Origin: Chthonomonadales bacterium
GTDB taxonomy: Bacteria > Armatimonadota > Chthonomonadetes > Chthonomonadales > CAJBBX01
Length of the DNA stretch: 64,000 bases
Assembly: GCA_037443035.1 (NCBI GenBank)
Contig: JBBIPC010000002.1
Coordinates: 128,001-192,000, forward strand
Reading direction: 5' to 3'
Part shown: piece by piece, positions 19,688 through 52,090 of the stretch
How the letters are laid out: every line of letters begins with the position of its first letter
Numbering within the stretch: the first letter of the stretch is position 1
Notes under the pieces: model-generated
Seen by the model: the letters and a program-made list of their open reading frames with translations, nothing else
Told to the model about the DNA's origin: nothing
Databases searched by the model: none
Position numbers and translations under genes: made by a program

Positions 19688-20971
19688 GTGCTGGTGATAC
19701 AGGACGTTGACGAGACATTGAAGCGGTTGCTTGCGACGGAGCTTGCCAAGCTGCCCGATACGCTTGTCTCGGACCCGCAACAGATCACCTTCGACTCACC
19801 GGCCACAGCCGAGGCGTCACAGCCAGATAAGTGCCGCCTGAACCTCTACTTGCACGACGTTCGCGAGAACCTCCAGTTGCGCGACCAATCGTGGGCGTTG
19901 GTGCGCAAGACGAACGAGGGCATAGCCGGTCGCAAGCGCCCACCCGTTCGTCTCGATCTGTCGTATCTTCTCACCGCCCACATGCCGCAGGACCCAGCAG
20001 CGGAGCACCGGGTCTTGGCGGACGCGCTGGGCATCCTCCTGCGGTTCCCTTACGCTCCTGAGAACTGCCTCGCAGGCTCCCTCGAAGGAAAGGGTCCCGA
20101 GGCAGTACTCATCAACGTGGTACAGCCTGATGATGTAGCGCACGGCGACGCTCACAACCTCTGGCGTGTGCTCGGAGGAAGCTTGCGACCGTCCGTGAGC
20201 ATCGTCGTCACAACCGAGTTCGATCCCTTCGAGACACGCTGGACGCGCGTGGTTCGCGAGGCAGTACTCGGGCTGGGCCAGGGGGTTCCGCCCCATGGAC
20301 CACGCCGACCTTTGGAGATGGGCGGTGTCAGGGTCAGCGCGGCCGGCGTCGTCACCACCGCCGACGGACAGAAGCCCGTGCCGGGCGCCACCGTCTCCGT
20401 AGAAGGACGTGACGAGCGTGCCACTTCGGACAGCCGAGGGTTCTGGTTCATCCTGGACCTGCCACCGGGCCCGAGGGTGCTTCGCGTCAAGAAGCGTGGC
20501 TATCATGAACAAGAGGTTCAGACGGTCTGTCCTCCCCCCGGTCGGCCGGACCAACTGGAACCCATTGTCGTGCGCCTCGAAGAGATGAGCGACGGTCAGC
20601 GCTCCGTGGAGGAACGCGTCTTGACCGAAGCCGCCCTGAACGCGCCGGATCTGGTCGAACTCGATAGGGTCTATACAGTGTCGCTCTCTGGTAGGCTCCG
20701 CTACCCGGACGGGCGACCTGCAGCGTACATCCCTCTCCGCATCGGTCGTCACCATACGACTAGCGATTCCGAGGGTGTCTACACGTTCCACGACCTCCCA
20801 CCTGGTGACCACATCCTTATCGCAGACGTGCCAGGGCGTGGGGAGATCACCGTCAAGACCGAAAACGGCGCTGGCATGCTTCAGCTCGCAGAGGCGGGCG
20901 AGACGAACAGCGCCACCCGAGACGCAAAGCCTGCTAGACGCACTAGGAAGGAGGTCGAGCCACCAGACTGA
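19688..20971 (+). CDS. Pvc16/Afp16-like (DUF4255) CIS cap protein fused to two carboxypeptidase-regulatory-like domains
   Basis: IQDVDETLKRLL, ITFDSP, LNLYLHDVREN, LDLSYLLTA, EHRVL, LRPSVSIVVT; C-terminal GVV...PVPGATV...TSDSRGF..LDLPPG repeated twice. Confidence 0.85.
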   Translation: MLVIQDVDETLKRLLATELAKLPDTLVSDPQQITFDSPATAEASQPDKCRLNLYLHDVRENLQLRDQSWALVRKTNEGIAGRKRPPVRLDLSYLLTAHMPQDPAAEHRVLADALGILLRFPYAPENCLAGSLEGKGPEAVLINVVQPDDVAHGDAHNLWRVLGGSLRPSVSIVVTTEFDPFETRWTRVVREAVLGLGQGVPPHGPRRPLEMGGVRVSAAGVVTTADGQKPVPGATVSVEGRDERATSDSRGFWFILDLPPGPRVLRVKKRGYHEQEVQTVCPPPGRPDQLEPIVVRLEEMSDGQRSVEERVLTEAALNAPDLVELDRVYTVSLSGRLRYPDGRPAAYIPLRIGRHHTTSDSEGVYTFHDLPPGDHILIADVPGRGEITVKTENGAGMLQLAEAGETNSATRDAKPARRTRKEVEPPD

Positions 20972-23461: not shown

Positions 23462-23815
23462 ATGAACAAGCCTACCAAGAGCGGTCTTCAGACGGAGTTC
23501 GACTTCGTCCTGCCACGCGGATACATTGACCAGAACGGCACTCTGCACCGCGAGGGACGTATGCGCCTAGCGACAGCCATGGACGAGATCGCTCCGCTGA
23601 GAGACCCTCGCGTCAGAGCCAATCAGGCCTACCTGGTTATCATCCTCCTGGCCAGGGTGATCACGAAACTCGGCACTGTCGAGGTCATAGACACGGGTGT
23701 CATCGAGAACCTCTTCTCGGCAGACCTTGCTTACCTGCAGGACTTCTACCGGAAGATCAATGACTTGACGCCCGAGGAGACCGCGGAAGAGGAGGCTGAA
23801 CCGGCGGGGGAATAG
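23462..23815 (+). CDS. CIS tail-assembly chaperone
   Basis: LQTEFDFVLPRGYID..G.LHREGRMRLATAMDEI.PLRDPRV..N.AYL, LFSADLAYLQDFY; lies right after the tube gene; ends GGG GAA TAG. Confidence 0.85.
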   Translation: MNKPTKSGLQTEFDFVLPRGYIDQNGTLHREGRMRLATAMDEIAPLRDPRVRANQAYLVIILLARVITKLGTVEVIDTGVIENLFSADLAYLQDFYRKINDLTPEETAEEEAEPAGE

Positions 23816-23973
23816 CCCGCTACCCCTCGAGCGCGCTCTACGAGGAGGTAGCCTACATCGCCTATCACTTCCACTGGTCGTTGGAGGAGATCCTGAGCCT
23901 GGAACACCGAGAACGGCACAGGTGGGTGGAAGAGATAAGCAAGATCAACCAGCGACTGACCGGGGGCGACTGA
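23806..23973 (+). CDS. DUF6760-like small CIS ORF with no start codon (probable -1 frameshift extension of the chaperone)
   Basis: Not in the ORF track. The -1 frame reads GGIARYPSSALYEEVAYIAYHFHWSLEEILSLEHRERHRWVEEISKINQRLTGGD*. An in-frame stop lies at 23797-23799 and there is no ATG/GTG/TTG before the conserved block. Confidence 0.85.
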   Translation, partial: GGIARYPSSALYEEVAYIAYHFHWSLEEILSLEHRERHRWVEEISKINQRLTGGD

Positions 23974-24048: not shown

Positions 24049-27000
24049 ATGGCCAGCATCGCTGAGCACACAAAGATTGGCAGCGCCGGTATTGCCGCGG
24101 CGGAGTTCGCGCGTCAGCGGCTTGCTGGTCGCACGGCCATGGGATTCCTCACGTCAGTGGGCACGGATGTTGCCAAGATCGGAGAGAGGTCGAGCACTTG
24201 GCTGGCAAGCGTCGCCAACGCTTATTATCAGTGGCAGCAAGACAAGGCCCGCGATGGAGCGGTGACCGAACCTGCTTATCCCGACAGCTACAGGGGGCCG
24301 AAGTACTCCACGTGGGAGGAAGCGCTTCAGCACGACACGCGCACCATCCTGTTCGTCAACGGCATGAACACAACGTTCGCCGACCACGAACGGCACAAGA
24401 GGCTGCTTGCTCAGCGCACCGGTCGGCCCGTGGTGGGCGTCTACAACTGGCCCGGTACTCCCACCGCCTACTCTCGGCATGATATCGTTCAGTACATCGG
24501 CTCCCTGCTCGATGTGAAGCAACCCCTTCTGGATGCTGCAGGTAGGTCAAGCAGCAATGCCGCCACCCAGACCCTCGAGCGCCTTCTGAAGCTCTATGCG
24601 ACGACACGCACGCCAAGCGCACCGCTGCGCGTGATCGGTCACTCGCAGGGATCGCTTATCGCTGCGACTGCACTCCGAGACGTCCCTGCAGCTCGCTCGC
24701 ACGTGGATTTCGAAGCACGCGGTACCATGCTCGGCTCGGTGCCGCGCGGTCTTCACGGTTTCCATGCACATGTGCATGAGGACGACTTGGTGGCGCGGCT
24801 GAGTCGACCGTTCGTGAGCACGATCCAAAGCCCATACGTCTGGCTTGGAACGGATGAAAAGACGCTTCCGCGAACAGAGGTCGGCGGAACCGGCGGGCAC
24901 GCGCTCGAGGGGTATCCGCTGGGTCCTGAGTTCATCCCAATGGACCGTGCCACCGATGCCGGCACTCTCGAGCGTTACCTCGTGCTTGTGGGCATCCCTC
25001 GCCAGCGCGCCGTCATCATCGCTCAGCGTGTCATCCACATGCGGGAGATCATCCGTCGGTGCCGAGCTGCAGCCGGTAGCATCGTGCGTTTCGTCGCCGC
25101 CCGTGTAGTCGAGCGGTGGCTGGCAGCTCGAACACGGTCGCTCCGCGTATGGCTCTCGGTCCGGTCGCGTGTTCGTACGCTTCTCGAGGATACCCGCCGC
25201 CGTGCACAGCAGGGCTTAGCCCATGCCCTGGAATCTGGCCGGCGCCTTCTGGCGCGCGCCCGACAGATGGTCCGGAGGCTCCAACAATGGGCCCGCGAGC
25301 GGATCCGCCAAGCCGTCGCCAGAGCAGAAGCTTCTATCCGACGCGCATGGGATTGGGCTCGGAACGCCGCAAGCAACGTGTGGGCGTGGGTTCGATCGAA
25401 GACCCGGTTCCTGCCATGGGATTGGGCAGGAGAGAAGGTTCGCGGCATATGGAACGCAGCCAAGTCCGTCGCTGAGCGCGAACGCACCTTCGTGAGGAGT
25501 CTTCGTCGGGCGACGTTGGACTTTCTCCGCGAACGAACCCAGGCACTCTGGGAGTGGGCTACGACCGCGGCCGCGGATCTCTGGCACCGAGCCGTCGAGG
25601 CGGCGGGTCGGGCCTGGGACTTTGCACGAAGCCTGGCGACACGACTGTGGCACACGGCAGAAGCCATCTCCCGCCGATTGACAGAAGGCGCCCGATCATA
25701 CGCTGAACGGCTGCGTCAAGAGGCACTCGACAAGATCAACGCTTGCTGGAAGTCGCTTCCGCCTGGAGTTCGCAACTTGGTTCTCCCTGGCGTCTCCATG
25801 GTCCGACGGCTATTAGGAGCAGGCCGAGAAGGTGCGAGAACCTACCGAAGATGGATACGCAGCGCGCTCGGCCGCTTATGGTCCTTCGCTAAGGGTCCAG
25901 TCGGCAGGGCGGCCAAGTGGCTGCGGAGCGCTGCCGGAAAAGCATGGGATTTCGCGCGGAGCCTTCTCGCCCGAGGCCACGATGTTGCGCGCGGTGTTCG
26001 TACAATCGCCGGCCGCGCGTGGGATTGGGGTAGAAAGCGCCTCGGGCCCCTATGGAACATCGCCCGCTCCTCCGTACGACGGCTGTTGCAGCGCGGTCTG
26101 ACGGGCGCCCGACGACTGGCCGAGTTCGGCAGGACTGTAGCGCGAGGCATCCTGGGGCGGCTCGGCCCGGGCGCCGCTCACTTGGCACGTCAGTTGGTGA
26201 GAGTGCTCGGTCCAGTGGTCGGCGGCCCAGCGTGGGTGGCTCGACAACTGGGACGCTGGGCAGGCGAGAGGTTCGGACGGCTTCTGAGAGGGGATCCACG
26301 GGCTCGCAGTGTCGTCCGCGGCATCCGGGTGGTCTCCCAACGGTTAGCACGCTTGGCTCGCGAAGGCCCCGGCGGCATGGCGGTGCGTCTCGGACGGTTC
26401 GTAGGCCGTACGTTCGGAGAGATGCTAAGGAGCGTGACATCGGGGCACGGAACGCGAAGCTCCCGGGCCGGACGCATTATCGGTAGGCTTCTCCGCGTGG
26501 TCAGCGGCGGCTTCCTGCCGGAGGCTGCTCGGTGGGCTGGTACTCTCCTTGGTCGGCTCGTACGGCGCGCCATGGAGCGGCCAGGCATTCTGGGTCAGTG
26601 GGCTGGTCGTGTGGTGGGGCGGCTCCTCGTAACGGCTCGAAGCGCCGCACACGGTCTCGATCGGGCGACGGGCGGCATGCTTGGCCGATTGGTGAGCCGA
26701 CTCGCCCACGGCGCTGGGACTGCTGGGCAGTTCATCGGCAACCTCTTGGGGCGCGCGGCCGAAGCCGTCGCGGAAGGCCGAGACCGCCTGGGTCAATTTG
26801 TCGGCGGCCTGGTGGGCAGACTGCTCGGCACTGCATCGCGGACCGCAGACCGCGCCAGGGAGACCACGGGTCGGATGCTCGGTCGCCTCTTGGGAGCCGG
26901 CCTGCAGGCTCTCCGGCGTGCGGATTCGCTATCCGGTGGGCTCTTAGGCCGAGCTCTTGGAGCAGGGGCAAGAGGGGCGAGGATCGTGGGCAGGCTCGTA

Positions 27001-30000
27001 GGCCAACTTGCAGGACACCTGTTCGGCAGCGCGACCCAGACCGCCCAACTCGTCGGGGGACTGGCCCGCGACGTCCTGGGCCGCCTCTTCAGCCGCGCCG
27101 CGAAGGGCGCCGGAGTTCTCGGCAGACTTGCCGGAACTGTTGTAGGCAGGATCGTCGTGCGTGCCCGGGAGCGCTTCGGGGCGGTCAGTGGTACGCTTGG
27201 TAATCTGGCAGCCCGCGGCATTGGTGTACTGGTGCGTGGGATCGGAACCGCCAGGAGCGTCGGAGGAGAGCTGCTGGGCAGGGCTGTTGGGTCTGGCATG
27301 CGGGCGGTGGCGCGCCTCCGGGCGTTCATTGGCCGCGGTATGAGCATCGCCGTCCGTACCTACCGCCGAGTGCTGGTGGCCCAGAGACATCTGGTGTCGC
27401 CCATCGGTCAGGCACTTGCTGGGATCGCTGCTCGCGTGGGCCGCCTTGTAACCGGTACCGCCGAGAGGCTCGGACCGCTCGCACGGGGAGCGCTGAGGGT
27501 GGCGGGCGGCCTTGCACGTGCCGCCGGCGGAGCCATTGGCCGGCTAGCACACAGAACGGGCGACTTCGCCAGTCGCACGGCGCGGCGTGTGTTGGCCAGC
27601 GCCCGAACCTTGGCCAGACCTCTTGTGGACGCCGCGAGACCCGTTGTTCGGACAGTGAGGGCTTTGGTCGGTTCGGCTGCGACCCGTGCCAGCGACATCG
27701 GTCGCCGCGCTGCGGCACCGGCACTGTCCCTCGCGCGCCGGGTCGGATCTCTCGTCGGCGGCCTGGCGAGTGGCCTACTGGGTCCAGCTACGCGTATCCT
27801 GCCGCGACCACCTGGCGGTGCTGCGAGACCCTTTACGGGACCGCTGACGGCATCCGGCGCCGCGCTTGGACGATCGCTGGGGACGACGGCAGGCTCATTG
27901 GTCACGATCGTGGCTCATCGTTCGACGGCGCCACCGTCCGTCACTCGTACGATTGCGGGAGCTGCGTCCGCGGTCGGATCGTTCGTTGGACGAGTAGCGC
28001 GAGGGTTTGGACTGTTCCGTGATGCCCTGCCGGGCGTGGGCGGTCCGGATCAGTACCTCGATGCGGAAGCCATGCGTAGACGCTTGATCGCCGGTGGCAG
28101 CACGGGCGCCCTTCTGCATGGTCCGACGCGCCAAACCATGGAGCAACACTTCGGCCAGGACTTCTCCCAGGTGCGCATTCACACTGACCCGACGGCAGGC
28201 ACAGCAGCCTCGGCCATGGGAGCGCGCGCATTCACCATCGGCAGCGACGTCTTCTTTGGTCCAGGACGCTACGACCCCCATTCACCTCGAGGGCAAGAGC
28301 TGCTGGCACATGAGCTTACCCACGTGATCCAGCAGACATCGGGCCGCATACAGGGACTGAGCCCATTCAGCCGCCAGGGTGGCGATACGCTCGAGCAGGA
28401 GGCTCAGCTTGCTGCCAAACACGTCCTCGCAAGGGTGGGGCGCCCCAAGGGGTTGCGCGTGGACGACTACGCCCGTACCTACGAAACGGAGGATGACGCG
28501 GAGATCACCGCCGCCGACCAGAAGCGCCTCGACACGATCTCTCTCATGGCCCTCCAGATGGTCGAGCAGTCCATGTTGCAGAAGGGCTACAAGCTGGAGG
28601 CCGAAGTTCCTTCGCTGGACGTCGACATCGAGCTGAACCTAGGTGAACTCAGCGACCAACAGGCCGCCATGATCTGGGCTGATGCCATCAGTGCCAGACT
28701 TATCGAAGAGCAACAACGGCCGCGGATAGAGGTCCCCGCTCCAGCACCGCGCCTCATGCGGGCACCAGACAAACCGGAACCGCAGAAGCCTCGCCTTACC
28801 CTTACTGAGGAGGCGAAGGCAGCGATCGCCAGGGACGTGGATGCCATTACCAAGAATGTGCGCTCCTGGTGGAGGAAGCCTGCGCAGATGGTGGAGCCGT
28901 TGCGCCGGTGGTACGAGGAAGATAAGCGCCTCTTCGGCGCTCTGGGCACACCGCACCTGGACTGGCTCATCTTCCAGATGCATCAGCGCATCTTCGACAA
29001 GGGCACTGTGATCACGCGCTTCACCAGCACCCTGGACGAGGTCGAGCGATATCTCGCGGACCGACCAGAGGGCGCCGCATTCAAGTTCTACAAGAGCATG
29101 AGTCAGCGATGGAAGAGCTACACGCCCGCCAAGGAAATGGAGGGCGTTGTCAGCTACATCGCCAAGCGCGAGGCGTACGCCGGATGGATGATTCTCAAGG
29201 GGATGGGCACTGCCCTGACCGGTCTGGCGGACGTTGGACTATGGGCATTCTGGAAGACCAGCGGTTGGCCGCTTCGGAAAGTGCTCCAGAAGTTCGGCAT
29301 CAAGGATGACAAGCTGTATCTCACCCCGTACATTGACAAGAAATTCGACGAAAGTGCTGATATCATCGCTCGCGAGCTCGGCATAGATGCGAACGAGCAG
29401 TTGTTTGGCAAAGTAAGTCTCAAGACGTTCAGCGAGGCGGGTGGGAAGGTCGTCGGCGGTCTCATGACGGCCGGAGCCCTTGGCCAGGTTGCAAAGGCAG
29501 GCCAGGCGGCTCAGGTAGCCGGCAATCTCGAGAAGGCCCGCAAGATTCAGCTCGGGCTGCAGGCCGTCAATGTGACGCAGGGACTGCAGCAGGTCGAGCA
29601 GCTCCACGACAAGGTCAAGCAGCTTCGGGAAGGACCGCCACCCCTTAGTTGGAGCGACATCGTCAAACGTCCGGACGTCTGGGCGCAGGTTGTGGGGATC
29701 ATGGGCACTGCCGTCGGCGCCAAGATGAGTTGGTCCCAGGCCAAGGGCATGATCTCCAAGACGGCGGAGAAGATAGGACTGGCGCTCAACGCGGCGCAGG
29801 TGGCACTCCTCACTGGTGCTTACGCCGCCGTGGACGACGACCCCACACTCAGCCCAGACGAGAAGCAGAAGGCCAAGGCGGAGATCCTCAGCCAGATCGT
29901 AACGACCGGTGCACTCATGGCCGACTCGGTCTGGGGCGCCAAGTACGAGGCCTGGAAACAGAAGCGGGCGGAGGCACGGCAGCAGCAGGCAGAAGCGACG

Positions 30001-31641
30001 CGACAGAAAAAGCTCGCCGCACAGGAGGAGGCTAAGGCTCTACCCGAAGGCCATGCGAAGGCAGGCGCAGCAGAGGCCGAGACCGCGGCCCTGAAGGCTG
30101 CGAAAGGCGACGAGCCAGAGGCGACCGCCAAGGGCAAACCCGACAAGAGAATCGTCGAAGAAGCCGCTGCCAAGGAGAAGCCGCTCAAGGCCGCCGTCCA
30201 GCATGGCCTGGACGAGGCGAAGAAGGTAGGAGATTGGGACGCTCTACTGCAGAAGTATGGTGCAGCATCCAAGGTTGCCAAGGACGCCCACGAAGCACGC
30301 TCAGAGATCATCCGGAAGATCTGCCAAGAGCACGGAGCGACCGCAACGGGCACCAAGGGACCGGCCAGCGACATTGACGTCACATTCCCCACAGAGCGCG
30401 CGCTCCACAAAGCGAGAGCCGAGATGGAGAAGCAGTACGGCAAGAACTGGGACCGCATGTTCAAGGCCAGCTTCAACTCGGATGTCATGCGTGCGCACGC
30501 TCATCTGGATCCGCGCCTGCAGCTCACCCCAGAGCAGCGGACCGCTATCGAGGCCCAGCTATCCAAGACGAGTGAGCGGCTGATACTCCAACGGCTCAAG
30601 GAAGCAGGATCCCACAGCGACGTAGCGAGAGCAGCGTTCAAAGAAGAGGCAGCACGTCTCGGACTCCACAAGAGCGAAGTCGAGATACCGCGCCTTACCA
30701 AAGCCGAGGTCCGCACGCTCGAACTGCAGCAAGACAACGCCATGCGCAACTACGAGAAGACCCTGAAAACACTGGAAGCGGCTCGGGCACGTGGCAATAC
30801 CTCGCCTGAAGAGTTGGCAGCCCTGCAAGCCAAGGCGATCAAACAGAGCATCGCCATAACCGAGCGCCAGATGCGGATCAACCAGGCCTACCCCGACCGC
30901 TATCTGACACCCGGAGGAGTCAAGGGCACCGTCTCGGCAGAGGTGTTGGGCAAGTTCGACAGGACAGCGTATGCCCAGAAGCAGTACGAGGCCCTTGCGC
31001 GCCAGCAGGATCCTAGGGCGCCGGCGGATCCCAAAGAGCTCTGGAAAGAAGCCTACAGACGGGCGCGACAGGAAGAGAAGCGGACAGCCGAGTTCCGCGC
31101 ACAGTTCCAGGGCTTGACGCCACACGAAGCGTACCAGCGGGCTCTGATGGAACGGCTGGAGTTTGTGGAACAGATAGCCAAGGCCGAGCAGGCCATCCGA
31201 CAGGAGCTCGGCACGGGTGCAAAGGTCACCACAGAGGAAGTCCTGCAGCGCGCGGCAGCGCGCTACGAGCTGTCCAAGTACGCCTATCGAGCCATGGAGA
31301 CCGCCAAGAAGCTCGGTATCGGGGTGCCCGAGGACCTGCTCAAGACGGCCAAGGAGATCTACAAACCACCAGAGTCCGTCGGTGGCACCGCCGCGCGAGA
31401 GCAACAGATGCGGGAGGTCTTCGGCATCAAGAAGGGTTCGGCCGAGTCGGCCAAGCTGCCGTCGGAGGTGAACTCCCGCATGGTCCTTTACGCTAGTCTC
31501 CTAGACCGAACACAGAAACAGATCATCGAGAAACTGCATGGCATGGTCCAAGCCAGTATGGGTCTACCGGATCTCCCGTTCAAGCAGAGCCACGACGTGA
31601 GGAAGCTGGGCAGCAAGCCAGCCAGCCTGAAAGACCAATGA
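24049..31641 (+). CDS. Giant multidomain CIS protein: lipase-like, tape-measure-like repeats, DUF4157 and putative C-terminal toxin region
   Basis: GHSQG at 24637-24651; Trp every 11 residues around 25350-25680; DUF4157 signature FGQDFSQVRIHTD...ARAFTIGSDVFF...LLAHELTHVIQQ at about 28140-28335; GTKGPASDIDVTF at 30349-30387. Start uncertain (24013/24049/24139). Confidence 0.85.
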   Translation: MASIAEHTKIGSAGIAAAEFARQRLAGRTAMGFLTSVGTDVAKIGERSSTWLASVANAYYQWQQDKARDGAVTEPAYPDSYRGPKYSTWEEALQHDTRTILFVNGMNTTFADHERHKRLLAQRTGRPVVGVYNWPGTPTAYSRHDIVQYIGSLLDVKQPLLDAAGRSSSNAATQTLERLLKLYATTRTPSAPLRVIGHSQGSLIAATALRDVPAARSHVDFEARGTMLGSVPRGLHGFHAHVHEDDLVARLSRPFVSTIQSPYVWLGTDEKTLPRTEVGGTGGHALEGYPLGPEFIPMDRATDAGTLERYLVLVGIPRQRAVIIAQRVIHMREIIRRCRAAAGSIVRFVAARVVERWLAARTRSLRVWLSVRSRVRTLLEDTRRRAQQGLAHALESGRRLLARARQMVRRLQQWARERIRQAVARAEASIRRAWDWARNAASNVWAWVRSKTRFLPWDWAGEKVRGIWNAAKSVAERERTFVRSLRRATLDFLRERTQALWEWATTAAADLWHRAVEAAGRAWDFARSLATRLWHTAEAISRRLTEGARSYAERLRQEALDKINACWKSLPPGVRNLVLPGVSMVRRLLGAGREGARTYRRWIRSALGRLWSFAKGPVGRAAKWLRSAAGKAWDFARSLLARGHDVARGVRTIAGRAWDWGRKRLGPLWNIARSSVRRLLQRGLTGARRLAEFGRTVARGILGRLGPGAAHLARQLVRVLGPVVGGPAWVARQLGRWAGERFGRLLRGDPRARSVVRGIRVVSQRLARLAREGPGGMAVRLGRFVGRTFGEMLRSVTSGHGTRSSRAGRIIGRLLRVVSGGFLPEAARWAGTLLGRLVRRAMERPGILGQWAGRVVGRLLVTARSAAHGLDRATGGMLGRLVSRLAHGAGTAGQFIGNLLGRAAEAVAEGRDRLGQFVGGLVGRLLGTASRTADRARETTGRMLGRLLGAGLQALRRADSLSGGLLGRALGAGARGARIVGRLVGQLAGHLFGSATQTAQLVGGLARDVLGRLFSRAAKGAGVLGRLAGTVVGRIVVRARERFGAVSGTLGNLAARGIGVLVRGIGTARSVGGELLGRAVGSGMRAVARLRAFIGRGMSIAVRTYRRVLVAQRHLVSPIGQALAGIAARVGRLVTGTAERLGPLARGALRVAGGLARAAGGAIGRLAHRTGDFASRTARRVLASARTLARPLVDAARPVVRTVRALVGSAATRASDIGRRAAAPALSLARRVGSLVGGLASGLLGPATRILPRPPGGAARPFTGPLTASGAALGRSLGTTAGSLVTIVAHRSTAPPSVTRTIAGAASAVGSFVGRVARGFGLFRDALPGVGGPDQYLDAEAMRRRLIAGGSTGALLHGPTRQTMEQHFGQDFSQVRIHTDPTAGTAASAMGARAFTIGSDVFFGPGRYDPHSPRGQELLAHELTHVIQQTSGRIQGLSPFSRQGGDTLEQEAQLAAKHVLARVGRPKGLRVDDYARTYETEDDAEITAADQKRLDTISLMALQMVEQSMLQKGYKLEAEVPSLDVDIELNLGELSDQQAAMIWADAISARLIEEQQRPRIEVPAPAPRLMRAPDKPEPQKPRLTLTEEAKAAIARDVDAITKNVRSWWRKPAQMVEPLRRWYEEDKRLFGALGTPHLDWLIFQMHQRIFDKGTVITRFTSTLDEVERYLADRPEGAAFKFYKSMSQRWKSYTPAKEMEGVVSYIAKREAYAGWMILKGMGTALTGLADVGLWAFWKTSGWPLRKVLQKFGIKDDKLYLTPYIDKKFDESADIIARELGIDANEQLFGKVSLKTFSEAGGKVVGGLMTAGALGQVAKAGQAAQVAGNLEKARKIQLGLQAVNVTQGLQQVEQLHDKVKQLREGPPPLSWSDIVKRPDVWAQVVGIMGTAVGAKMSWSQAKGMISKTAEKIGLALNAAQVALLTGAYAAVDDDPTLSPDEKQKAKAEILSQIVTTGALMADSVWGAKYEAWKQKRAEARQQQAEATRQKKLAAQEEAKALPEGHAKAGAAEAETAALKAAKGDEPEATAKGKPDKRIVEEAAAKEKPLKAAVQHGLDEAKKVGDWDALLQKYGAASKVAKDAHEARSEIIRKICQEHGATATGTKGPASDIDVTFPTERALHKARAEMEKQYGKNWDRMFKASFNSDVMRAHAHLDPRLQLTPEQRTAIEAQLSKTSERLILQRLKEAGSHSDVARAAFKEEAARLGLHKSEVEIPRLTKAEVRTLELQQDNAMRNYEKTLKTLEAARARGNTSPEELAALQAKAIKQSIAITERQMRINQAYPDRYLTPGGVKGTVSAEVLGKFDRTAYAQKQYEALARQQDPRAPADPKELWKEAYRRARQEEKRTAEFRAQFQGLTPHEAYQRALMERLEFVEQIAKAEQAIRQELGTGAKVTTEEVLQRAAARYELSKYAYRAMETAKKLGIGVPEDLLKTAKEIYKPPESVGGTAAREQQMREVFGIKKGSAESAKLPSEVNSRMVLYASLLDRTQKQIIEKLHGMVQASMGLPDLPFKQSHDVRKLGSKPASLKDQ

Positions 31642-31654
31642 GGGATGTGACAGT

Positions 31655-31984
31655 ATGGCGATTCGCATCAAGCGGCTCCACTGCCGCGTAATGGTGAAAA
31701 CCGGTGGCAAGAGCCGTCCCATCCTCGCCAAGGATGAGAAGCGGCCCACGCCGTCGCTCGCTTTCGCGATGCCGTCAGCCCGGCCACGAACCGAGGGCGC
31801 TGGACAGGAGCCGGCCGTGAGCGCCATCGAGGAAAAGGGTGCCGCAGCCGGCCGGAAGCCGCGAATCGACCCGCGGCGGGTGGATCCCAAGCTCGTCGCC
31901 GACAGGGTCTACGATCTGATGATGAAAGAACTCCACCTTGCTCGCGAGCGAGGCGAGGTGAAGTACGGAGGGATGCGACCATGA
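31655..31984 (+). CDS. Small CIS-associated hypothetical protein
   Basis: Sits between the giant gene and tube 2 and overlaps the next start; C-terminal VADRVYDLMMKELHLARERG. Confidence 0.75.
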   Translation: MAIRIKRLHCRVMVKTGGKSRPILAKDEKRPTPSLAFAMPSARPRTEGAGQEPAVSAIEEKGAAAGRKPRIDPRRVDPKLVADRVYDLMMKELHLARERGEVKYGGMRP

Positions 31985-32481
31985 GATCAGGCAGTGCCAG
32001 CAGCGACCGAAGGGGACGCGACGAGCATATTGGCCTGCGCTTCTGGGTGCAGATAGACGGGGTGGAGGTGGCGGGCTTCTGTGAATGCTCGCCTATCACC
32101 ATCGAAACAGAGACGTTCGACTATCCAGAAGGCGGACTGAACACCTTCGTCCACCGTCTGCCCGTCCGCACTAAGTATGGCAACATCACCCTGAAGCGGG
32201 GTCTGGATCCTGGGCAGGATCTTTTTCGCTGGTTCATGTCCACGCTGGACGGCAATACGCGGCGCAGGAATGTCACCATCAGCATCTACGGCCCGCAAGG
32301 GAATAGTCCCGTGGAGGAATGGCACCTGCGCGGGGCCTATCCCGTGAAATGGACGGGTCCTGACCTCAAGACAGAGACCGGTGCTATCGCCGTCGAATCG
32401 CTCGAGTTCGCCTTCGAAAGCCTGGTTAGTAATAACCTGGGCACCGGGCCAGGAGCTTCTCACAGTGGCTTTCAGCGCTAA
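31981..32481 (+). CDS. Second tail tube protein (gp19-like)
   Basis: FWVQIDG..VAGF.EC, EGGLNTFVHRLP, NITLKRG, AYPVKWTGPDL, IAVESLEF. Confidence 0.93.
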   Translation: MRSGSASSDRRGRDEHIGLRFWVQIDGVEVAGFCECSPITIETETFDYPEGGLNTFVHRLPVRTKYGNITLKRGLDPGQDLFRWFMSTLDGNTRRRNVTISIYGPQGNSPVEEWHLRGAYPVKWTGPDLKTETGAIAVESLEFAFESLVSNNLGTGPGASHSGFQR

Positions 32482-32572
32482 CAACACTGCGCGAGGTTCC
32501 GCCAAGCGGCCGCCTGTATTGGGCTGGGCATGGCGGAAACTTGGCCCTTCGGGAGAGAGGAGGGCTTAGGGG

Positions 32573-35500
32573 ATGGCCCTATCGGAACAGAAGCTTCGGG
32601 AGCTCGCCGAAATCGAGCCGCCACGCTTTCTGGAGCGGATCGCGGATTTCCTCGCCGACTTGACGCTGCGCACTTCCGGCACGGCAGTGCTCGAGCGAGC
32701 TCAGGAGGGTGCAGGCCGCCCCATCGGCAGCGTTGGCTTGAACGCCGAGTCCTTCGGCATGTTGCTTTCCCACCGGGCAGCATTCCATGGCGTAGCCGAT
32801 CCTGTACAAGGCTTGTACCGCCTGATGAAACCCTACCAGGTCGGCCCTTACGAGCTCCGACAGTTCACCATGTGGCTGGTGAAGTTTCATGACAAGCTCT
32901 CTGAAACCGAGGTGCTCCGAGAGCCTCCCGTGGTGGCGGCGGCACCTCAAGCAGAGCCAGCACGCCCCGGCGTCTCACGCGAAGCCGTCGCTCCTGCCCC
33001 ATCACCGCCATCTGCGTACCGCTTGCCCGCCGTTGCCGTGGCCGGAGCTGTCGTCTCAGAGACGGAGTTGGCGAGAGGAAGCCGGCGGCGCGTTCGCATA
33101 GTTCGAGGCCCTGGACATCCCTATGAGGAAGTCGTAGAGGAGGTTCCCGCCGGATCCAGACGAGCGATTCAGAGACCTGCTGGTGGAGGAGGGGCGGAAA
33201 GTACGGCCTCAGCCGAAGCAAGGCCAGCGGCGTCACAGCCGACTCGAGAGCCGGATGTCATCAGCCGAGCATGGCAGGCTGGTCACAGGAGTGGGCCGCC
33301 CGCGGGCATACCGCCAGAAGTCGAAGTGGCGCCTTCCACTGCAAAGCGCGTTGCCATGAGGACATTGTGGCTGTCCAATCTCAGCATGGCCAGCGCTGCG
33401 GCCGGCGTCATGATCGGACGGTCTGTGGCTCCGGCCACCATGGCCGCCCGACTCACGTCGCCAGCGACACTCGGGGTGGCCGGTCCGGCGGCCACCGGCA
33501 GCATGCTTCAACCACCGTACATGTCGTTCCCGCTCAGTCATCCGCCGGTGAGTACGGCCTCGTGGCTCGGTGTTGCCCCGCCGGCCCCCTATCCAGCCGA
33601 GTTCGTGCCCATGCCGGGTGCTCCCGCTCCGCTTCGGAGTCTTGTCGTGCCCCAGCCAGCGTTCGAGCGCCCGTCCATAGTGGCCATGCCCAGCTTCGGT
33701 GTCCAGATGCCGGTCCTGCCGGGTCGTGAGGCACTGAGCATCTACGAGACAGCCCACCAGGCATATACAGGTACGGCGGACGTCCACCCGCGTGGTAGGC
33801 CACGAGGCACAAGGGGCGCGCTCGAAGACGCTCTCCAACCCACCGCAGAGGCATCCATCCACCCTAGTCCTGCCCCGCAGCGCGGACCATCACCGATACC
33901 CGGACTGCTGGCTGCGGGGCTGGCGGGATTCCTACTTGGACGACTGACGTCTCGCGGTGGCGGCCAACCTGTACTAGGTCCCCCGGTATACGATCTGTTC
34001 GCCGAGCCTGTGCCATCACGCACCGGAGTCCCTCGGCTCCGCATCTTCTCAGTTTCGCTACCAGGATCGCTCGAAGCGACGCTCGTCGCACCAGGCGCAG
34101 GTCCCACAGCCGTTGGCGGGACACCTGGCGGTGCCTTCCTCCAGGTCGGGATACCGTTGCTCGGTGCCGGTCCCTCGCTAGGACGCAGATTGGGTACCGC
34201 GCCTGGAATGACTGTGCCTTCTCCCATGGACATTCTTGGTGGCACAGTTGCTGCCCGAGGAGGGCCAGCCGCATCCGCGCCGATTCGGGTGCCGAGCCAG
34301 GTCCTGCCGCGACTTGGAGAAGTCACCCTTATCGCTCCCCCCATGGCGGTAGCATCGGAAGCTGCCGAGCGCCGAGGAAGTGCCGTGGCGTTCGATTGGA
34401 AGGCCCTCGCTCGTGCATCCGGTCCGCTGGACCAGACGGGACTTCGCCGACTGCGCGAAGCTCTGCCGGAGGGGACTCAGGCGATCTACCCAGCTATCCC
34501 TCGCCAGGACCTGCCTGCGGGAGCCGTGAACCTTCGCTTGGCACCTTCGCTGCTACGACCGTTGTTGACCCAAGCGTACGGCTCGCATGCAGCCGGCATC
34601 GCGGGAGCCGCGGCTTCGACCGCCTCCGCCATCGATGTCACACCCCTGTCTGCAGCGCCTACTCCGGCGCGTATCGTACCGGTCAGGCGACCGGCAGGGG
34701 CAGCGGAATCGGTGCTTCCGAGCCCCACACCATCCGTGGCCGGAGCGCTGCAGGAGGCCGGTGCCGGCCAGGCCAGGCGGTCGCCCATGCTCGACTTCCT
34801 GGGGGTGCCAGTCCGTCTCGCCCCCAGCCTTGCGGGACGCGCAGAGCTTCGAGATGAGCTGGCGGCTCGTGGCCTAGCCACACAGGGCGCAACCCCTCAG
34901 GTCGTGCGACCTCACCTGTTCCAGGCACTGCGGGAGCAGGTATTCCCGGGAGTGCAAGCCATTCACGCGGAACCCGACCGCTCGGCTTGGCGCAAGGCTG
35001 CGCCGCACTTCGGCCTCAGAGACTCTGAGCCGACAACGGTTCTTTCGCCTGACGCCCGCATCAAGCCTCCGAGGGCCGACGCGCCGTTGCCCCAACTCCA
35101 TACTGGCGCGCCGTCGCCGGTCCTTCGTCCGTGGCTCGCTCAGACTGTCGCCGAACGGAGTGCCGGGGCCGTACCCATGTCCTTGGCTGCCGCACCGAGG
35201 CTCGCCGAGGCGTTTGGTATGCCTTCTCACAGACCTCTGCATACAACCGGCCGGGTCTCGGAGCCACATCTCGGGATGGATGAGCGCTTCGAGCCGTTCG
35301 CCTCTCCGATGACGGTGCCAATCGGCATACGGGGCATGCCGGGTATGCCGGCTGAGCGGCCTGTACGCTCGCTATGGCCCGCGCCAGAGCCTGACCCTCG
35401 GTCCCCACAGGACCGGAGCCCAGTCCATCTGCCACCCGTGGAAGCACACGGCCGCGTGAGGATCCCAGAAAGCGCTCCCGCTGAGCACGGCGCTCCACCG

Positions 35501-36505
35501 GCACCGTTGTTCTCCGTGAGTGGAGTGCGGCTGGCCGACCGGTCGCCATTGTCGCCTGACCAACTCCCCTCGCTACCTGGCTTACCGGCGCGACCTGCCA
35601 TGCCTGCGTCAGAGCTGGCCAGTCGCCCGTTGTTACCGAGCCTGCGAACAGAATGGCACCAAGGTATCGAACTACCTGGGGCAAGACCAGAGATCCGGCC
35701 GGCGTTCAGGAGTAGTCTGCCCATGGCGATCAGTCTGCCGGGGATCACCCAAGCCCGACATCCTGCGCTCGCATCCGACTCGCTTCCGTCAGCCGGAACG
35801 CTTGACACAGCCACACGCGTGGCCGCAGGACCAATGGAGCAGAGGGTGGCGCGCCCGCTGGTTTCACCGGCACCGTTCGGCGTTCCGATGCTCGCACCGA
35901 TCCCACTGCCGATCTTCGCCAGCACGGCGCAGCGACCGGCGCTCGGCCCAATGCGAAGCGCACCAATGCACCAGACGCTGCCGCAGCCGGACAGGCGGCC
36001 CGCAGAAGGACCTGCGGCCTTACAGCTCGCCGTGCACACGGTTCTGGGCGGTCCACAGCCTTCTGCCACGCCTCTCATGCCAACGAGTCCTGTGCAGCTT
36101 CCCCTGCCGGCTGCGCGTGTGGACATTCCACCCATCGAGCCGCCGCCTATGCCCCTGCCAGGCGCCGGCGAACCGGCATCGCCAGTCGCACTGCGCAGCC
36201 GGGCATCCTCGGTTGTTTCCCACGCACCTCGGCGGTACTACGCCTCGGTGGATGCAGGTCCCGCACGACGGGTAACGGTTCAGAAAGCCACATCGGAAAC
36301 AGCAGGCATCGTTGGCGGGCCTCACCAACCGCTGCCAAGTCCGCATCGCGCCCGACAGATGCCTACCGACACGCAGCGTGCTTCCATCCTGTCCTCGCGT
36401 GAAGAGGGCATGACCGCAAACGAAGTGTTTCTCCTCGCCAATGACGTTTGGGCGATTCTCAAACGACGACTACAGTGGGAGGCGGACCGGCGTGGCCGGT
36501 GGTAA
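32573..36505 (+). CDS. Large Pro/Ala-rich CIS-associated protein with short folded-looking termini
   Basis: 1310-aa ORF co-oriented in the operon; low-complexity middle; C-terminal LLANDVWAILKRRLQWEADRRGRW. Confidence 0.75.
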   Translation: MALSEQKLRELAEIEPPRFLERIADFLADLTLRTSGTAVLERAQEGAGRPIGSVGLNAESFGMLLSHRAAFHGVADPVQGLYRLMKPYQVGPYELRQFTMWLVKFHDKLSETEVLREPPVVAAAPQAEPARPGVSREAVAPAPSPPSAYRLPAVAVAGAVVSETELARGSRRRVRIVRGPGHPYEEVVEEVPAGSRRAIQRPAGGGGAESTASAEARPAASQPTREPDVISRAWQAGHRSGPPAGIPPEVEVAPSTAKRVAMRTLWLSNLSMASAAAGVMIGRSVAPATMAARLTSPATLGVAGPAATGSMLQPPYMSFPLSHPPVSTASWLGVAPPAPYPAEFVPMPGAPAPLRSLVVPQPAFERPSIVAMPSFGVQMPVLPGREALSIYETAHQAYTGTADVHPRGRPRGTRGALEDALQPTAEASIHPSPAPQRGPSPIPGLLAAGLAGFLLGRLTSRGGGQPVLGPPVYDLFAEPVPSRTGVPRLRIFSVSLPGSLEATLVAPGAGPTAVGGTPGGAFLQVGIPLLGAGPSLGRRLGTAPGMTVPSPMDILGGTVAARGGPAASAPIRVPSQVLPRLGEVTLIAPPMAVASEAAERRGSAVAFDWKALARASGPLDQTGLRRLREALPEGTQAIYPAIPRQDLPAGAVNLRLAPSLLRPLLTQAYGSHAAGIAGAAASTASAIDVTPLSAAPTPARIVPVRRPAGAAESVLPSPTPSVAGALQEAGAGQARRSPMLDFLGVPVRLAPSLAGRAELRDELAARGLATQGATPQVVRPHLFQALREQVFPGVQAIHAEPDRSAWRKAAPHFGLRDSEPTTVLSPDARIKPPRADAPLPQLHTGAPSPVLRPWLAQTVAERSAGAVPMSLAAAPRLAEAFGMPSHRPLHTTGRVSEPHLGMDERFEPFASPMTVPIGIRGMPGMPAERPVRSLWPAPEPDPRSPQDRSPVHLPPVEAHGRVRIPESAPAEHGAPPAPLFSVSGVRLADRSPLSPDQLPSLPGLPARPAMPASELASRPLLPSLRTEWHQGIELPGARPEIRPAFRSSLPMAISLPGITQARHPALASDSLPSAGTLDTATRVAAGPMEQRVARPLVSPAPFGVPMLAPIPLPIFASTAQRPALGPMRSAPMHQTLPQPDRRPAEGPAALQLAVHTVLGGPQPSATPLMPTSPVQLPLPAARVDIPPIEPPPMPLPGAGEPASPVALRSRASSVVSHAPRRYYASVDAGPARRVTVQKATSETAGIVGGPHQPLPSPHRARQMPTDTQRASILSSREEGMTANEVFLLANDVWAILKRRLQWEADRRGRW

Positions 36506-36550
36506 CTGAAGCGCGATGCCGCCTCGAGAGAACGAAGGAAAGGTACAGCC

Positions 36551-37201
36551 ATGGGACTGACCAAAGCCAAGATCATCAACGAAGACACCCGCGAGGTCAT
36601 CGAGTGTCTGTTCAATCCCACCGAGTACACCATCGCCAAAGCCAACTCGTGGCAGCCGAAGCCGGTCGTCGGCAAGAACGTTCCGAAGCTGGACTTCACC
36701 GGCGGCGGTTCTCGCACGCTGGATCTCGAGCTATTCCTCGATGTCTTCGAGCAGAAGGGCGCCGATGTCCGCACCTACACGGACAAGCTTTGGAAGCTGA
36801 CCATGATCGACGAGTCCAAGAAGCACCCGAAAACACGTCGTTCACGGCCACCTCTGTGCACATTCCAATGGGGCGGGAACTGGAGCTTCAAGGCGGCGAT
36901 CACCAATCTCTCCATCCGCTACACGCTGTTCAGGGACGATGGTAAGCCGGTCAGGGCAGTGGCACATGTCACCATGCAGGAGGCGGAGGACGATACAGAA
37001 CAGCGGCGCACCAACCCCACCTCGGGCTCCGAACCCGGACGGAAGCGGCGCGAGGTCCGACCACACGATACCCTCGCACTGATCGCTTTCGAGGAATACG
37101 GAGACGCTGGGCAGTGGCGCCGTATCGCTCAGGCCAACAATCTGGCGGACCCCATGGACCTCCGCCCGGGTCAGATACTGACCATACCGCCCCTTACGTG
37201 A
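36551..37201 (+). CDS. CIS tube initiator with C-terminal LysM (Afp7/Pvc7-like)
   Basis: FNPTEYTIAK, PPLCTFQWG, YTLF..DG.PVRA; LysM DTLALIAFEEYGD...WRRIAQAN...DLRPGQILTIP. Confidence 0.92.
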   Translation: MGLTKAKIINEDTREVIECLFNPTEYTIAKANSWQPKPVVGKNVPKLDFTGGGSRTLDLELFLDVFEQKGADVRTYTDKLWKLTMIDESKKHPKTRRSRPPLCTFQWGGNWSFKAAITNLSIRYTLFRDDGKPVRAVAHVTMQEAEDDTEQRRTNPTSGSEPGRKRREVRPHDTLALIAFEEYGDAGQWRRIAQANNLADPMDLRPGQILTIPPLT

Positions 37202-37269
37202 GCAGCAACAGGCGATCCAGGAAGGTCGAGGCCCTTTGAGCACAGCGTTCGAGTACGGAGGCAGAAGCG

Positions 37270-39222
37270 ATGGCTGAAGAACACCACGTCTCGCACTTCG
37301 CCATGCACATAGACGGTTCACCCGCCCCCAAAGAAGTCATGGACCAGCTTCTCGACTGCACCATCGAGAATAGCCTCCACCTTCCGGATATGTGCACGGT
37401 ACGGATCCACCATGGTGAGGCAGACAAGCAGGGCATGTACAAGTTCATCGATTCGCCTCAGTTCGCTGTTGGCAAGGCGATGAAGATTACGGGTGGTGAA
37501 GGTCCGAGCGGCGATTCGACCCTGTTCGAAGGGGAGATCGTCGGCGTCGAGCTAGACCTGGCCGCACACGGCGTGCCCACTCTGGTGGTGCGATGTTTCG
37601 ACAAGAGCCACCGCTTGCATAGGGGAAGGCAGGCCCGCACGTTCGTTCAGATGAAGGACACGGACATTGTGCAGCGCGTCGCAGGCGAGGCTGGCCTGAG
37701 CGTCGAGGCCGATCAGACCAGCGAAGTCCATGACTGGGTCATGCAGAACAACCAGACCAACTGGGAGTTCCTGCAAGAACGTGCGGCCCGGAACGGCTTC
37801 CGGCTCTTCCTGAAAGACGGCAGCAAGCTGTGCTTCAAGAAGGTCGAGGATGATGGTCGGACAACCCATACCCTCGAGTGGGGCAAGGAGCTACGCAGCT
37901 TCCGGCCCAGGGTATCGGCGTCTCCCCAGGTGGACGAGGTGGAGGTGCGTGGTTGGGATCCCAAGAAGAAACAGGCGATTATCGCAAGAGCCAAGTCCGC
38001 CAAGGGCGTGCCGAAGGTACGGCAGGATCGTCAAGGTGGAGAGGTCGCCAAGCGCGCGTTTGGCAGCGCCAAGATGGTCGTCGTCGATCGTCCCGTCCAT
38101 AGCGAAGGCGAAGCTAAGGCCATCGCCCAGTCGTTGTGTGACGAGATTGGGGCCTCCTTCCTGGAAGCCGAGGGTCTCTGCTACGGCGTGCCGCAGATGC
38201 GGCCGGAGGACATGGTCAAGATCCAGAACATCGGTGATCGTTTCAGCGGTGAGTACCTGGTCACGTCCTGTACCCACACCTACACACCGGCCGAAGGTTA
38301 CGCCACCGTCTTCACTGTGAGCGGCAAGAAACCTCCGACCCTCCTTTCCGTTCTGGAAGGGGATGAGCTGTCTCGTCGTGCGCCCATCGGTGGCAACATC
38401 GTGGTTGGCGTGGTTACGGACAACAACGACCCCGATAACTTGGCGCGGGTCAAAGTGAAGTTCCCCTGGCTCACCGAGGAGCACGAGAGCTTCTGGTCTC
38501 GTATTGCCGTACCTATGTCCGGCCCAGATAGAGGAATGCTGTTCTTGCCCGAAGTCGGCGACGAGGTCCTCGTGGCTTTCGAGCATGGCGACATCCGACG
38601 CTCCTACATCATAGGCTGCCTCTGGAACGGCAAGGACAAGCCACCAAAGACGCGCAAGGACGACTACGCTAGCTCGAAAGCCGTCAATGGCGGCAAGACC
38701 ACTCGCCGGTGGATACGGACGCGCATGGGGCACATCCTGGAGTTCTTCGATGATTGCGATGGCAAGATTGGTGCCACGCTCCGAACCAACGAAGGCTACC
38801 GGATTCAGCTCCGCGAGAACGACCAGCGCATCGAGATCATCACGAAGAACAAGCACATGATGCTACTCGATGACAAGAACGATGTGATTCGGGTCGTGGA
38901 CAAGACCGACGGCAATCACATCAAGATCAGCACGAGCGACAACTCGATTCTCGTCGAAGCGAAAGGCGACATCACCGTCCGCTCCAAGCAGGGCAACATT
39001 ACCCTCGATGCTATGCAGAAAGTCGTCATTACCGCGAAGCAGGGCATCGAGGCGACTACGCCGCAGCAAGTCAAGATCGAGGGTACTGCCGGGTTCAGCA
39101 TCAAGACTGCCGCCAGCGGGTCTGTGGAAGCCACCAATCTCGATCTCAAGGGCAATGCAAAGGCCAACCTCCAGGGCGGCGCCATGGCGACGATACAGGC
39201 CGCACTGGTCAAGATCAACTAG
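37270..39222 (+). CDS. VgrG-like spike (Afp8/Pvc8 family)
   Basis: gp27-like N-terminal part (QNNQTNWEFL..RA, VEVRGWD); gp5 OB-fold GVVTDNNDP...RVKVKFPW...LPEVGDEVLVAFEHGD; beta-helix tail; no toxin extension. Confidence 0.95.
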   Translation: MAEEHHVSHFAMHIDGSPAPKEVMDQLLDCTIENSLHLPDMCTVRIHHGEADKQGMYKFIDSPQFAVGKAMKITGGEGPSGDSTLFEGEIVGVELDLAAHGVPTLVVRCFDKSHRLHRGRQARTFVQMKDTDIVQRVAGEAGLSVEADQTSEVHDWVMQNNQTNWEFLQERAARNGFRLFLKDGSKLCFKKVEDDGRTTHTLEWGKELRSFRPRVSASPQVDEVEVRGWDPKKKQAIIARAKSAKGVPKVRQDRQGGEVAKRAFGSAKMVVVDRPVHSEGEAKAIAQSLCDEIGASFLEAEGLCYGVPQMRPEDMVKIQNIGDRFSGEYLVTSCTHTYTPAEGYATVFTVSGKKPPTLLSVLEGDELSRRAPIGGNIVVGVVTDNNDPDNLARVKVKFPWLTEEHESFWSRIAVPMSGPDRGMLFLPEVGDEVLVAFEHGDIRRSYIIGCLWNGKDKPPKTRKDDYASSKAVNGGKTTRRWIRTRMGHILEFFDDCDGKIGATLRTNEGYRIQLRENDQRIEIITKNKHMMLLDDKNDVIRVVDKTDGNHIKISTSDNSILVEAKGDITVRSKQGNITLDAMQKVVITAKQGIEATTPQQVKIEGTAGFSIKTAASGSVEATNLDLKGNAKANLQGGAMATIQAALVKIN

Positions 39223-39231
39223 GAGAAGCAC

Positions 39232-39528
39232 ATGCCACCTGCAGCACGCATGGGAGATCCAACTGCACACGGAGGGGTGATCACGATGGGCTGTCCCACT
39301 GTCCTCATCGGAGGTCAACCGGCGGCCCGTCTGGGCGACATGCACACGTGCCCCATGGTCACACCTGGTACACCGCCGGTCCCCCACGTGGGCGGGCCCA
39401 TCCTTCCGCCGTGCCAGCCTACCGTTCTAATCGGCGGCATGCCAGCCGCCAGGGTCGGTGACATGGCCACGTGTGTCGGTCCCCCCGACTCGATTGTGAT
39501 GGGTTGCGTGACCGTGATCATCGCCTGA
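39232..39528 (+). CDS. PAAR spike-tip protein
   Basis: PAARMGD, PAARLGD and PAARVGD with His/Cys ligands. Confidence 0.96.
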   Translation: MPPAARMGDPTAHGGVITMGCPTVLIGGQPAARLGDMHTCPMVTPGTPPVPHVGGPILPPCQPTVLIGGMPAARVGDMATCVGPPDSIVMGCVTVIIA

Positions 39529-39551
39529 ATCCGCCGGTGAGAGGAGGCCTC

Positions 39552-39959: not shown

Positions 39960-39968
39960 CACGCCGCC

Positions 39969-42101: not shown

Positions 42102-42113
42102 GGAAGCGGCTAC

Positions 42114-52038: not shown

Positions 52039-52090
52039 ACGAGCTGCCTACACCTCCTGATACTGCACTAGTCTGAGGCTGGCAATGCTC

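Follow-up and report, generated by a model that had tools for sequence, protein, structure and literature searches.

A Probable Programmed -1 Ribosomal Frameshift Joining a Tail Assembly Chaperone to DUF6760 in a Chromosomal Contractile Injection System

INTRODUCTION

How is a protein domain translated when its open reading frame (ORF) offers no usable start codon? The question is raised by the DUF6760 frame in a contractile injection system (CIS) locus of a Chthonomonadales bacterium, which overlaps the end of the gene for a 117-aa protein in the -1 frame. The window, meaning the whole stretch of DNA analyzed, comprises 64,000 nt (GCA_037443035.1, contig JBBIPC010000002.1, positions 128,001-192,000, forward strand). 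An initial annotation of this DNA proposed that ribosomes enter the DUF6760 frame by a -1 shift at GGGGGAA, as in the phage lambda gpG/gpGT chaperone pair. In lambda, which has a noncontractile tail and the shift site G_GGA_AAG, gpG and gpGT are made at a ratio of ~30:1, with G binding the tape measure and T binding the tube protein (PMC5009743); a ratio and binding partners can be suggested for the CIS by analogy only. Here, we present comparative sequence evidence that expression of the chaperone gene in this chromosomal, lineage-II-type CIS very probably involves programmed -1 ribosomal frameshifting akin to that of lambda G/GT.

RESULTS AND DISCUSSION

The Junction and Its Setting

The features of the locus are collected in Table 1. 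The 117-aa gene ends GAG GCT GAA CCG GCG GGG GAA TAG, with GCG at 23804-23806, and a TGA at 23797-23799 closes the -1 frame just before the DUF6760 ORF; both the final GCG GGG GAA TAG and the upstream stop are present in the sequence as first described. Read from stop to stop, the DUF6760 ORF (23800-23973) encodes 57 aa (TGGGIARYPSSALYEEVAYIAYHFHW...RWVEEISKINQRLTGGD). The list of ORFs contains none with a common start at this position, and the sole GTG sits close to the ORF end, in keeping with the description of this frame as start-less and DUF6760-like. The chaperone and DUF6760 are each single-copy in the genome, and the closest named relatives of the locus are Armatimonadota. Among 2,679 long ORFs in the genome, none terminates in GGGGGAA, and the junction is kept in homologues; the arrangement is not a product of chance.

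Table 1. Features of the CIS locus in window coordinates
Feature	Position	Strand	Evidence or remark
Pvc16_N/DUF4255 cap (terminator) gene	19688..20971	+	PF14065 E 3e-30 at 19703-20233
Sheath gene	21066-22931	+	PF04984/PF17482; TIGR02241 (sheath + inner tube region)
Inner tube gene	23009-23443	+	PF06841; TIGR02241 (sheath + inner tube region)
Tail assembly chaperone, short form (TAC-N, gpG equivalent)	23462..23815	+	117 aa
Shine-Dalgarno-like GAGGAGG, candidate -1 stimulator	23789..23795	+	10 nt 5' of heptamer
DUF6760 frame (-1), putative T-domain	23800..23973	+	PF20546 E 3e-19
Slippery heptamer G_GGG_GAA (predicted -1 shift site)	23806..23812	+	sequence
TAG, short-form stop; first half of 6-nt spacer	23813..23815	+	sequence
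Predicted stem-loop, candidate 3' stimulator	23819..23852	+	6 nt 3' of heptamer
2,530-aa DUF4157 (eCIS_core) protein	24049..31641	+	PF13699 E 9e-33
109-aa ORF, second tube, 1,310-aa ORF, CIS_tube-LysM (first part of cluster)	31655..43265	+	
VgrG-related, PAAR, gp25, baseplate J-like, P2 I-like genes (rest of cluster)	31655..43265	+	

The locus is a chromosomal, lineage-II-type CIS. Family matches place sheath, tube, spike, and baseplate genes all in one cluster, and a Pvc16_N terminator, a feature of eCIS (PMC10020575), lies just upstream of the sheath. The CIS locus as a whole spans 19688-47091. An AAA+ ATPase is described as invariable for eCIS. Two CIS ATPase queries returned weak core matches on other contigs (best 26-30%, E 2e-9), and no CIS-type AAA+ ATPase was found with them across the 61 contigs of the assembly. 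Gene content (TIGR02243, NF033848, T4 gp19-like tubes) and relatives in Chloroflexota and Streptomyces suggest membership in class IId, whose representatives in S. coelicolor, S. davawensis, and Roseiflexus share the order of cap, sheath, tube, small gene, and DUF4157 protein and continue, as here, with second tube, LysM, VgrG-related, and baseplate genes. By gene order, sco4251 of S. coelicolor, which follows the sheath and tube and is described as being of unknown function (PMC10020575, PMC10066040), would correspond to this chaperone; the accessible portions of these two class IId papers name neither a chaperone nor a frameshift.

Farther downstream, the gene at 43275-44444, after the baseplate, fuses a CIS-type N-terminal part to DUF4159. 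A convergent cluster (50422-62162, - strand) follows the CIS and encodes a LuxR-type regulator, a 1,468-aa caspase-domain protein, a 1,367-aa Ig-repeat protein, and TPR proteins.

Phase and Slippery Heptamer Are Conserved

We collected junctions from genome, metagenome, viral-contig, and plasmid loci (216 anchored, 179 distinct). Excluded before counting were 3 of 181 loci (including L120 and L135), loci L072, L131, and L154, and 7 of 48 loci with no chaperone or no DUF6760 nearby. Searches centred on G302, G303, and G305 returned one phylum and left the sample no broader; since it is rich in Armatimonadota and Chloroflexota, the junction counts are not independent.

Alignment of these junctions across eCIS loci, a check suggested in the initial annotation, bore out both the constant phase and the slippery motif. 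DUF6760 lies in the -1 phase in 178 of 179 distinct junctions, and the lone exception (L044) has an indel upstream of an intact GGGGGAA. A slippery heptamer in tandem-slip register precedes the chaperone stop in 176 of the 178 -1 junctions, under a rule (X_XXY_YYZ or G_GGG_GAN) that was set after the data were seen, allows seven offsets, and has a background of 0.0022 (0.22%) per position elsewhere in the chaperone genes. In 164 junctions the heptamer stands exactly 15 nt before a conserved Tyr codon. The short-form stop itself shifts among homologues (-8, -5, -11, and +28 relative to this codon), while the heptamer position is fixed. The heptamer classes are GGGGGAA (86), GGGGGGA (38), GGGGGGG (33), GGGAAAC (9), GGGGGAG (6), and five singletons. 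On a tree of the 178 chaperones the class switches at least 30 times and stays slippery, indicating that slipperiness rather than one particular sequence is kept. The two junctions outside the rule are L009, with C_CCT_TTG further upstream and an open -1 frame, and L186, with an ATGA overlap and no heptamer.

The site occurs in Armatimonadota, Chloroflexota, Actinomycetota, Bacillota (Paenibacillus), Cyanobacteriota (Nostoc, Brasilonema, Pseudanabaena, Kovacikia), and Pseudomonadota (Burkholderia, Paraburkholderia, Rhizobium), as well as in two haloarchaea (G_GGA_AAT, G_GGA_AAC). It is absent from six chaperone copies that have no DUF6760 behind them (two from Deinococcus, one each from Treponema and S. 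xanthophaeus, and extra copies in Pseudanabaena and Kovacikia). The Deinococcus plasmid loci (L200:1495-2147, L212:656-1463) lack both DUF6760 and the slippery site in CIS operons that otherwise look intact. Eleven loci were added later, of which nine could be parsed; the heptamer is present in seven, and in two G_GGG stands directly before TGA (L235:3430-3460, L239:2630-2655), where a single-tRNA slip at the stop codon is possible.

G-runs are prone to sequencing error, and indels do occur near the junction in L044, L120, and L206, which raises the question of whether the arrangement is an assembly indel or the relic of a dead gene piece. The same arrangement is found in finished plasmid records of many phyla, and DUF6760 is conserved at the protein level, with invariant E, W, H, and R residues. 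Contigs from all three public DNA runs examined (two studies) cross the junction without insertion or deletion, so that the sequencing indel that the initial annotation had wished to see checked is not present. A single contig of 65.8 kb carries the whole stretch in one piece, with 32 substitutions and 0 gaps over 901 nt; the best-matching run may be related to the source sample, yet it differs by 3.5%. An artefact or relic is thus an extremely remote explanation.

Runs of 5-9 G in 165 of the 178 junctions also invite transcriptional slippage, in which RNA polymerase would add a G within the run and yield some mRNAs with a fused frame. Five G are short for this process. Moreover, every one of the 165 runs starts at codon position 3, a register that polymerase does not need, a long run is missing from the GGGAAAC/T and CCCTTTA/G variants, and the hairpin described below lies on the coding strand at ribosomal spacing, which suits translation. 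We consider transcriptional slippage very unlikely and ribosomal slippage the better reading of the heptamer.

Candidate Stimulators: A Downstream Hairpin and an Upstream Shine-Dalgarno-like Site

Two candidate stimulators, neither of which figured in the initial annotation, flank the heptamer. The predicted hairpin (-18.9 kcal/mol, z -2.1, equalled or bettered in 9 of 200 shuffles) has the basal stem GCTACC...GGTAGC. Across 176 loci, this region folds at -20.3 kcal/mol versus -11.8 kcal/mol for synonymous re-coding (mean z -2.9), whereas a control region further into DUF6760 is flat (-9.5 versus -8.9 kcal/mol re-coded). Codon choice in the stem points in the same direction, with TAC for Tyr in 132 of 135 loci versus about 50% elsewhere and GTA for Val in 127 of 135 versus a background of 6-7%. 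The main stem is used in 145 loci and GTACGC/GCGTAC in 14 (mainly Actinomycetota-type), with neither in 17 of 176; Burkholderia and Rhizobium use a third stem. Covariation in the main stem, which is nearly invariant, is not significant (2 two-sided changed pairs; 37 of 500 shuffles as high), and the compensatory stem change expected in L045 was not found. By folding energy and codon choice, the predicted hairpin is conserved and held at the nucleotide level.

The GAGGAGG site is predicted to form a duplex of -14.1 kcal/mol with the anti-Shine-Dalgarno (anti-SD) sequence. Across homologues, the corresponding value is -9.4 versus -7.9 for synonymous re-coding, compared with -4.5 versus -4.9 in a control region, a modest signal that overlaps Glu codons. 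Its distance from the heptamer falls inside the 9-14 nt given for SD sites that stimulate -1 shifts (PMC5009743), and the site is perhaps such a stimulator.

A Separate Start for DUF6760?

Translational coupling is a real rival because an ATGA or GTGA overlap would yield the identical -1 phase. DUF6760 would then be a separate small protein, made by re-initiation at a stop-overlapping codon (ATA in this locus). RefSeq does annotate 4-nt overlaps in haloarchaea, Nostoc, Burkholderia, and Streptomyces plasmids. An ATG, GTG, or TTG lies within 12 nt of the Tyr codon in 55 of 178 junctions, often as an ATGA/GTGA overlap, and some table-11 start, mostly ATH, lies within 30 nt in 149. However, the -1 frame contains no ATG, GTG, or TTG at all in 87 junctions and has one only far upstream in 36, and 14 junctions lack a table-11 start of any kind. 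On the tree, starts are gained or lost 24 times.

At the position corresponding to ATA 23812, the codon counts are ATA 51, ATC 37, ATG 25, GTC 12, GTA 11, GTG 8, CTA 7, ATT 6, and other 7. Coupling can draw on the ATA, ATC, or ATT found at 94 of 164 such codons, but 33 of 164 are non-starts (GTC, GTA, CTA, GTT, other); these counts indicate that a hydrophobic residue is retained and a start codon is not. The heptamer is present in 53 of the 55 start-bearing loci as well, and its fixed register is left unexplained by coupling. The hairpin would hinder initiation, and the SD-like site, 16 nt from ATA 23812, is too distant to support it. L186 looks like a true separate gene, and coupling may act beside frameshifting in some lineages. 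As the explanation of this junction we judge coupling to be quite improbable, and frameshifting is retained as the preferred reading.

The Short Form Resembles Phage Tail Assembly Chaperones

The 117-aa protein matches PHROG 508, "tail assembly chaperone" (E 9e-8), and its gene is placed after the tube gene. An AlphaFold model built on a 66-sequence alignment reached a pLDDT of 85, versus only 56 with a shallow alignment. Its best PDB matches are YqbN (3KLU; Z 6.5, rmsd 6.2, 97 aligned) and the HK97 chaperone (2OB9; Z 6.0, rmsd 7.0, 94 aligned), modest Z-scores that lie below the tool's caution line of 8 yet above unrelated rows. Foldseek matches in a viral library (E 2e-5 to 9e-3) include Mu FS-gp41 and T4 gp26-like proteins, the latter at TM 0.63-0.68. 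At the sequence level, the chaperone profile matched neither P2 gpE nor Mu gp41 and found nothing among PDB sequences. Searches of annotated phages with the chaperone and DUF6760 sequences gave nothing useful, and Pfam returned only sub-threshold Gp41_Mu matches (10 of 44). The PHROG match and the model mark the 117-aa protein as a tail assembly chaperone with the phage chaperone fold.

A zinc-ribbon-like CxxC...CxxC tail precedes the shift site in 113 of 178 chaperones (Chloroflexota and Actinomycetota loci); Armatimonadota chaperones have an acidic tail in its place. Cyanobacterial and some other loci (L232:2498-3255, L206, L154, L203/L242) encode two chaperone paralogues, just one of which carries the slippery site and DUF6760.

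DUF6760 as a Probable T-Domain

The initial annotation took DUF6760 for the gpT equivalent, and profile comparisons lend this weak but consistent support through homology to the -1 extension of P2 gpE, E'. Phage_P2_GpE (PF06528) is matched by 15 of 43 DUF6760 members (best E 8e-4), and an hhalign comparison of the DUF6760 family profile with the E' segment of P2 gave a probability of 77% (E 2e-5), whereas the Mu extension gave no match. These results support DUF6760 as a probable T-domain.

Natural in-frame chaperone-DUF6760 fusions appear among the best 150 profile matches (P0210, a cluster of 3, and P0239, from one contig). The apparent fusions P0210, P0279, and P0239 are 150-159 aa long and are known from protein sequences alone; a scan of viral contigs yielded no relatives of P0210. 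Four other long DUF6760 proteins (P0128, P0220, P0223, P0268) read like indel artefacts and were rejected as fusions.

Comparison with Known Frameshift Sites

The assignment of GGGGGAA as the mycobacteriophage L5-type site proved correct: in L5 gp24/gp25 this heptamer stands close to the 3' end of the short gene, in an identical register. Among ~1,000 SEA-PHAGES sites, GGGGGAA is the only "five-two" motif encountered (PMC10885494). L5 also has a strong 3' hairpin (-28 kcal/mol), with a spacer of 4 nt versus 6 nt here. L5 differs in being a siphophage, whereas the CIS is a nonviral contractile machine, and its T-part is long and shows no obvious likeness to DUF6760.

P2 gpE/gpE+E' shares the gene order seen here (sheath, tube, chaperone, -1 extension), and E' aligns with DUF6760 over an FHW motif. 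Unlike the G-rich heptamer, the P2 slip site is a U-run (TTTTTTG). In P2 a true tape-measure gene comes next, and gpE has no sequence match to the chaperone described here. Among haloarchaea, the Haloferax CIS site is the same G_GGA_AAC as the g-t site of the virus HCTV-1 (PMC5009743), and the Halogeometricum CIS has G_GGA_AAT; these CIS, in contrast to the virus, are plasmid-borne, with an ATGA overlap and no clear hairpin. The two haloarchaeal loci (L194:8998-9800, L195:1998-2794) combine G_GGA_AAY and ATGA with a 50-aa ORF between tube and chaperone.

Is There a Tape-Measure Client?

A position just upstream of a tape-measure gene, as put forward earlier for such shifts, is not general: in this locus the DUF4157 protein follows, with no tape-measure family match. 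The N-terminal part of this 2,530-aa protein gives weak alpha/beta hydrolase matches, DUF4157 occupies residues 1369-1444 (numbered from 24013), about 1,050 residues are rich in Arg, Gly, Ala, Leu, and Trp, and the C-terminal part has no assignment. No good ribosome-binding site is predicted for the gene, and in Armatimonadota relatives the protein differs greatly in both length and content. The Arg-rich stretch and DUF4157 resemble S. davawensis Tme (PMC11126660), and the protein may be a tape-measure-like client. In 33 of 69 long loci, a second tube gene starts within 350 nt after DUF6760.

The 109-aa ORF (31655-31984) and the 1,310-aa ORF (32573-36505) end in similar C-terminal helices (ADRVYDLMMKELHLARERG; ANDVWAILKRRLQWEADRRGRW), and small ORFs after the Deinococcus chaperones (L200, L212) carry a C-terminal motif of the same kind. 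This shared helix could mark tube-lumen or tape-measure ends.

Proposed Mechanism

We infer the slip itself, its rate, the roles of the stimulators, and the binding partners as follows. Termination at TAG 23813, the fate of the majority of ribosomes, would yield the 117-aa chaperone. The remaining minority would slip from G_GGG_GAA to GGG_GGA_A and continue into DUF6760, adding 53 aa to give a predicted long form of 170 aa. On GGGGGAA, the P-site tRNA re-pairs perfectly and the A-site Glu tRNA re-pairs via a G:U pair (PMC10885494). The hairpin 6 nt ahead would pause the ribosome, and the SD-like site 10 nt behind would perhaps pull on it. The predicted junction reads ...EPAG[E or G]IARYPSS..., where residue 117 would be Glu or Gly according to the timing of the slip, and the corresponding junction peptide would be INDLTPEETAEEEAEPAG[E/G]IAR. 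The Gly of the originally proposed junction, EAEPAG-GIARYPSS, is therefore one possible outcome; a tandem slip after GAA decoding would put Glu in its place. By analogy with lambda, the short form would coat a tape-measure-like protein, and the DUF6760 domain would recruit the tube subunit.

The proposal that this CIS keeps the G/GT mechanism thus gains support from the conserved phase, the heptamer, the lack of a conserved start, and homology. The mechanism, the lambda G/GT trick, is known; its occurrence in CIS we found unreported, with no published report in a search that covered literature outside subscription papers. The word "frameshift" is absent from the accessible portions of PMC10020575, PMC10066040, PMC12237407, PMC11126660, bioRxiv 2025.11.06.686954, and PMC12998442, and in those of PMC8718954, PMC13222765, and PMC9022992 frameshift and chaperone terms are unrelated or stand in references. 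No paper on DUF6760 was found. New here are the predicted hairpin, the candidate SD-like site, the probable homology of DUF6760 to P2 gpE', the modeled phage chaperone fold, and the rare in-frame fusions.

Implications

If DUF6760 is a T-domain, a broader reading follows, in which the tubes of lineage-II CIS are assembled around a tape-measure-like protein. Taken as a whole, we give this broader reading even chances. It holds that lineage-II CIS of at least six bacterial phyla and of haloarchaea share a hairpin-stimulated -1 frameshift that annotation has missed and that would rank among the most widespread programmed frameshifts of cellular genes; that the client is most likely the long DUF4157 protein or adjacent low-complexity cargo proteins; that G/GT serves as a cargo-loading and length-setting device of cytoplasmic CIS; and that lineages retune it by stem swaps, part fusion, and chaperone duplication.

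The finding suggests both a function and a mode of expression for DUF6760, which databases either overlook or list as a gene of its own with invented starts. CIS papers call the tape-measure gene absent, and the result bears on how S. coelicolor CIS particles can nevertheless be of a single length (PMC12237407), as well as on the tape-measure-related cargo Tme and Sle1, for which no loading mechanism is known (PMC11126660, bioRxiv 2025.11.06.686954). A conserved G/GT pair leads one to expect a tape-measure client. It also provides a genetic handle, as a single synonymous change would abolish the long form alone. The junctions supply a natural set of G-rich slippery sites, for which three stem solutions have arisen independently, and, in haloarchaea, a candidate cellular -1 frameshift.
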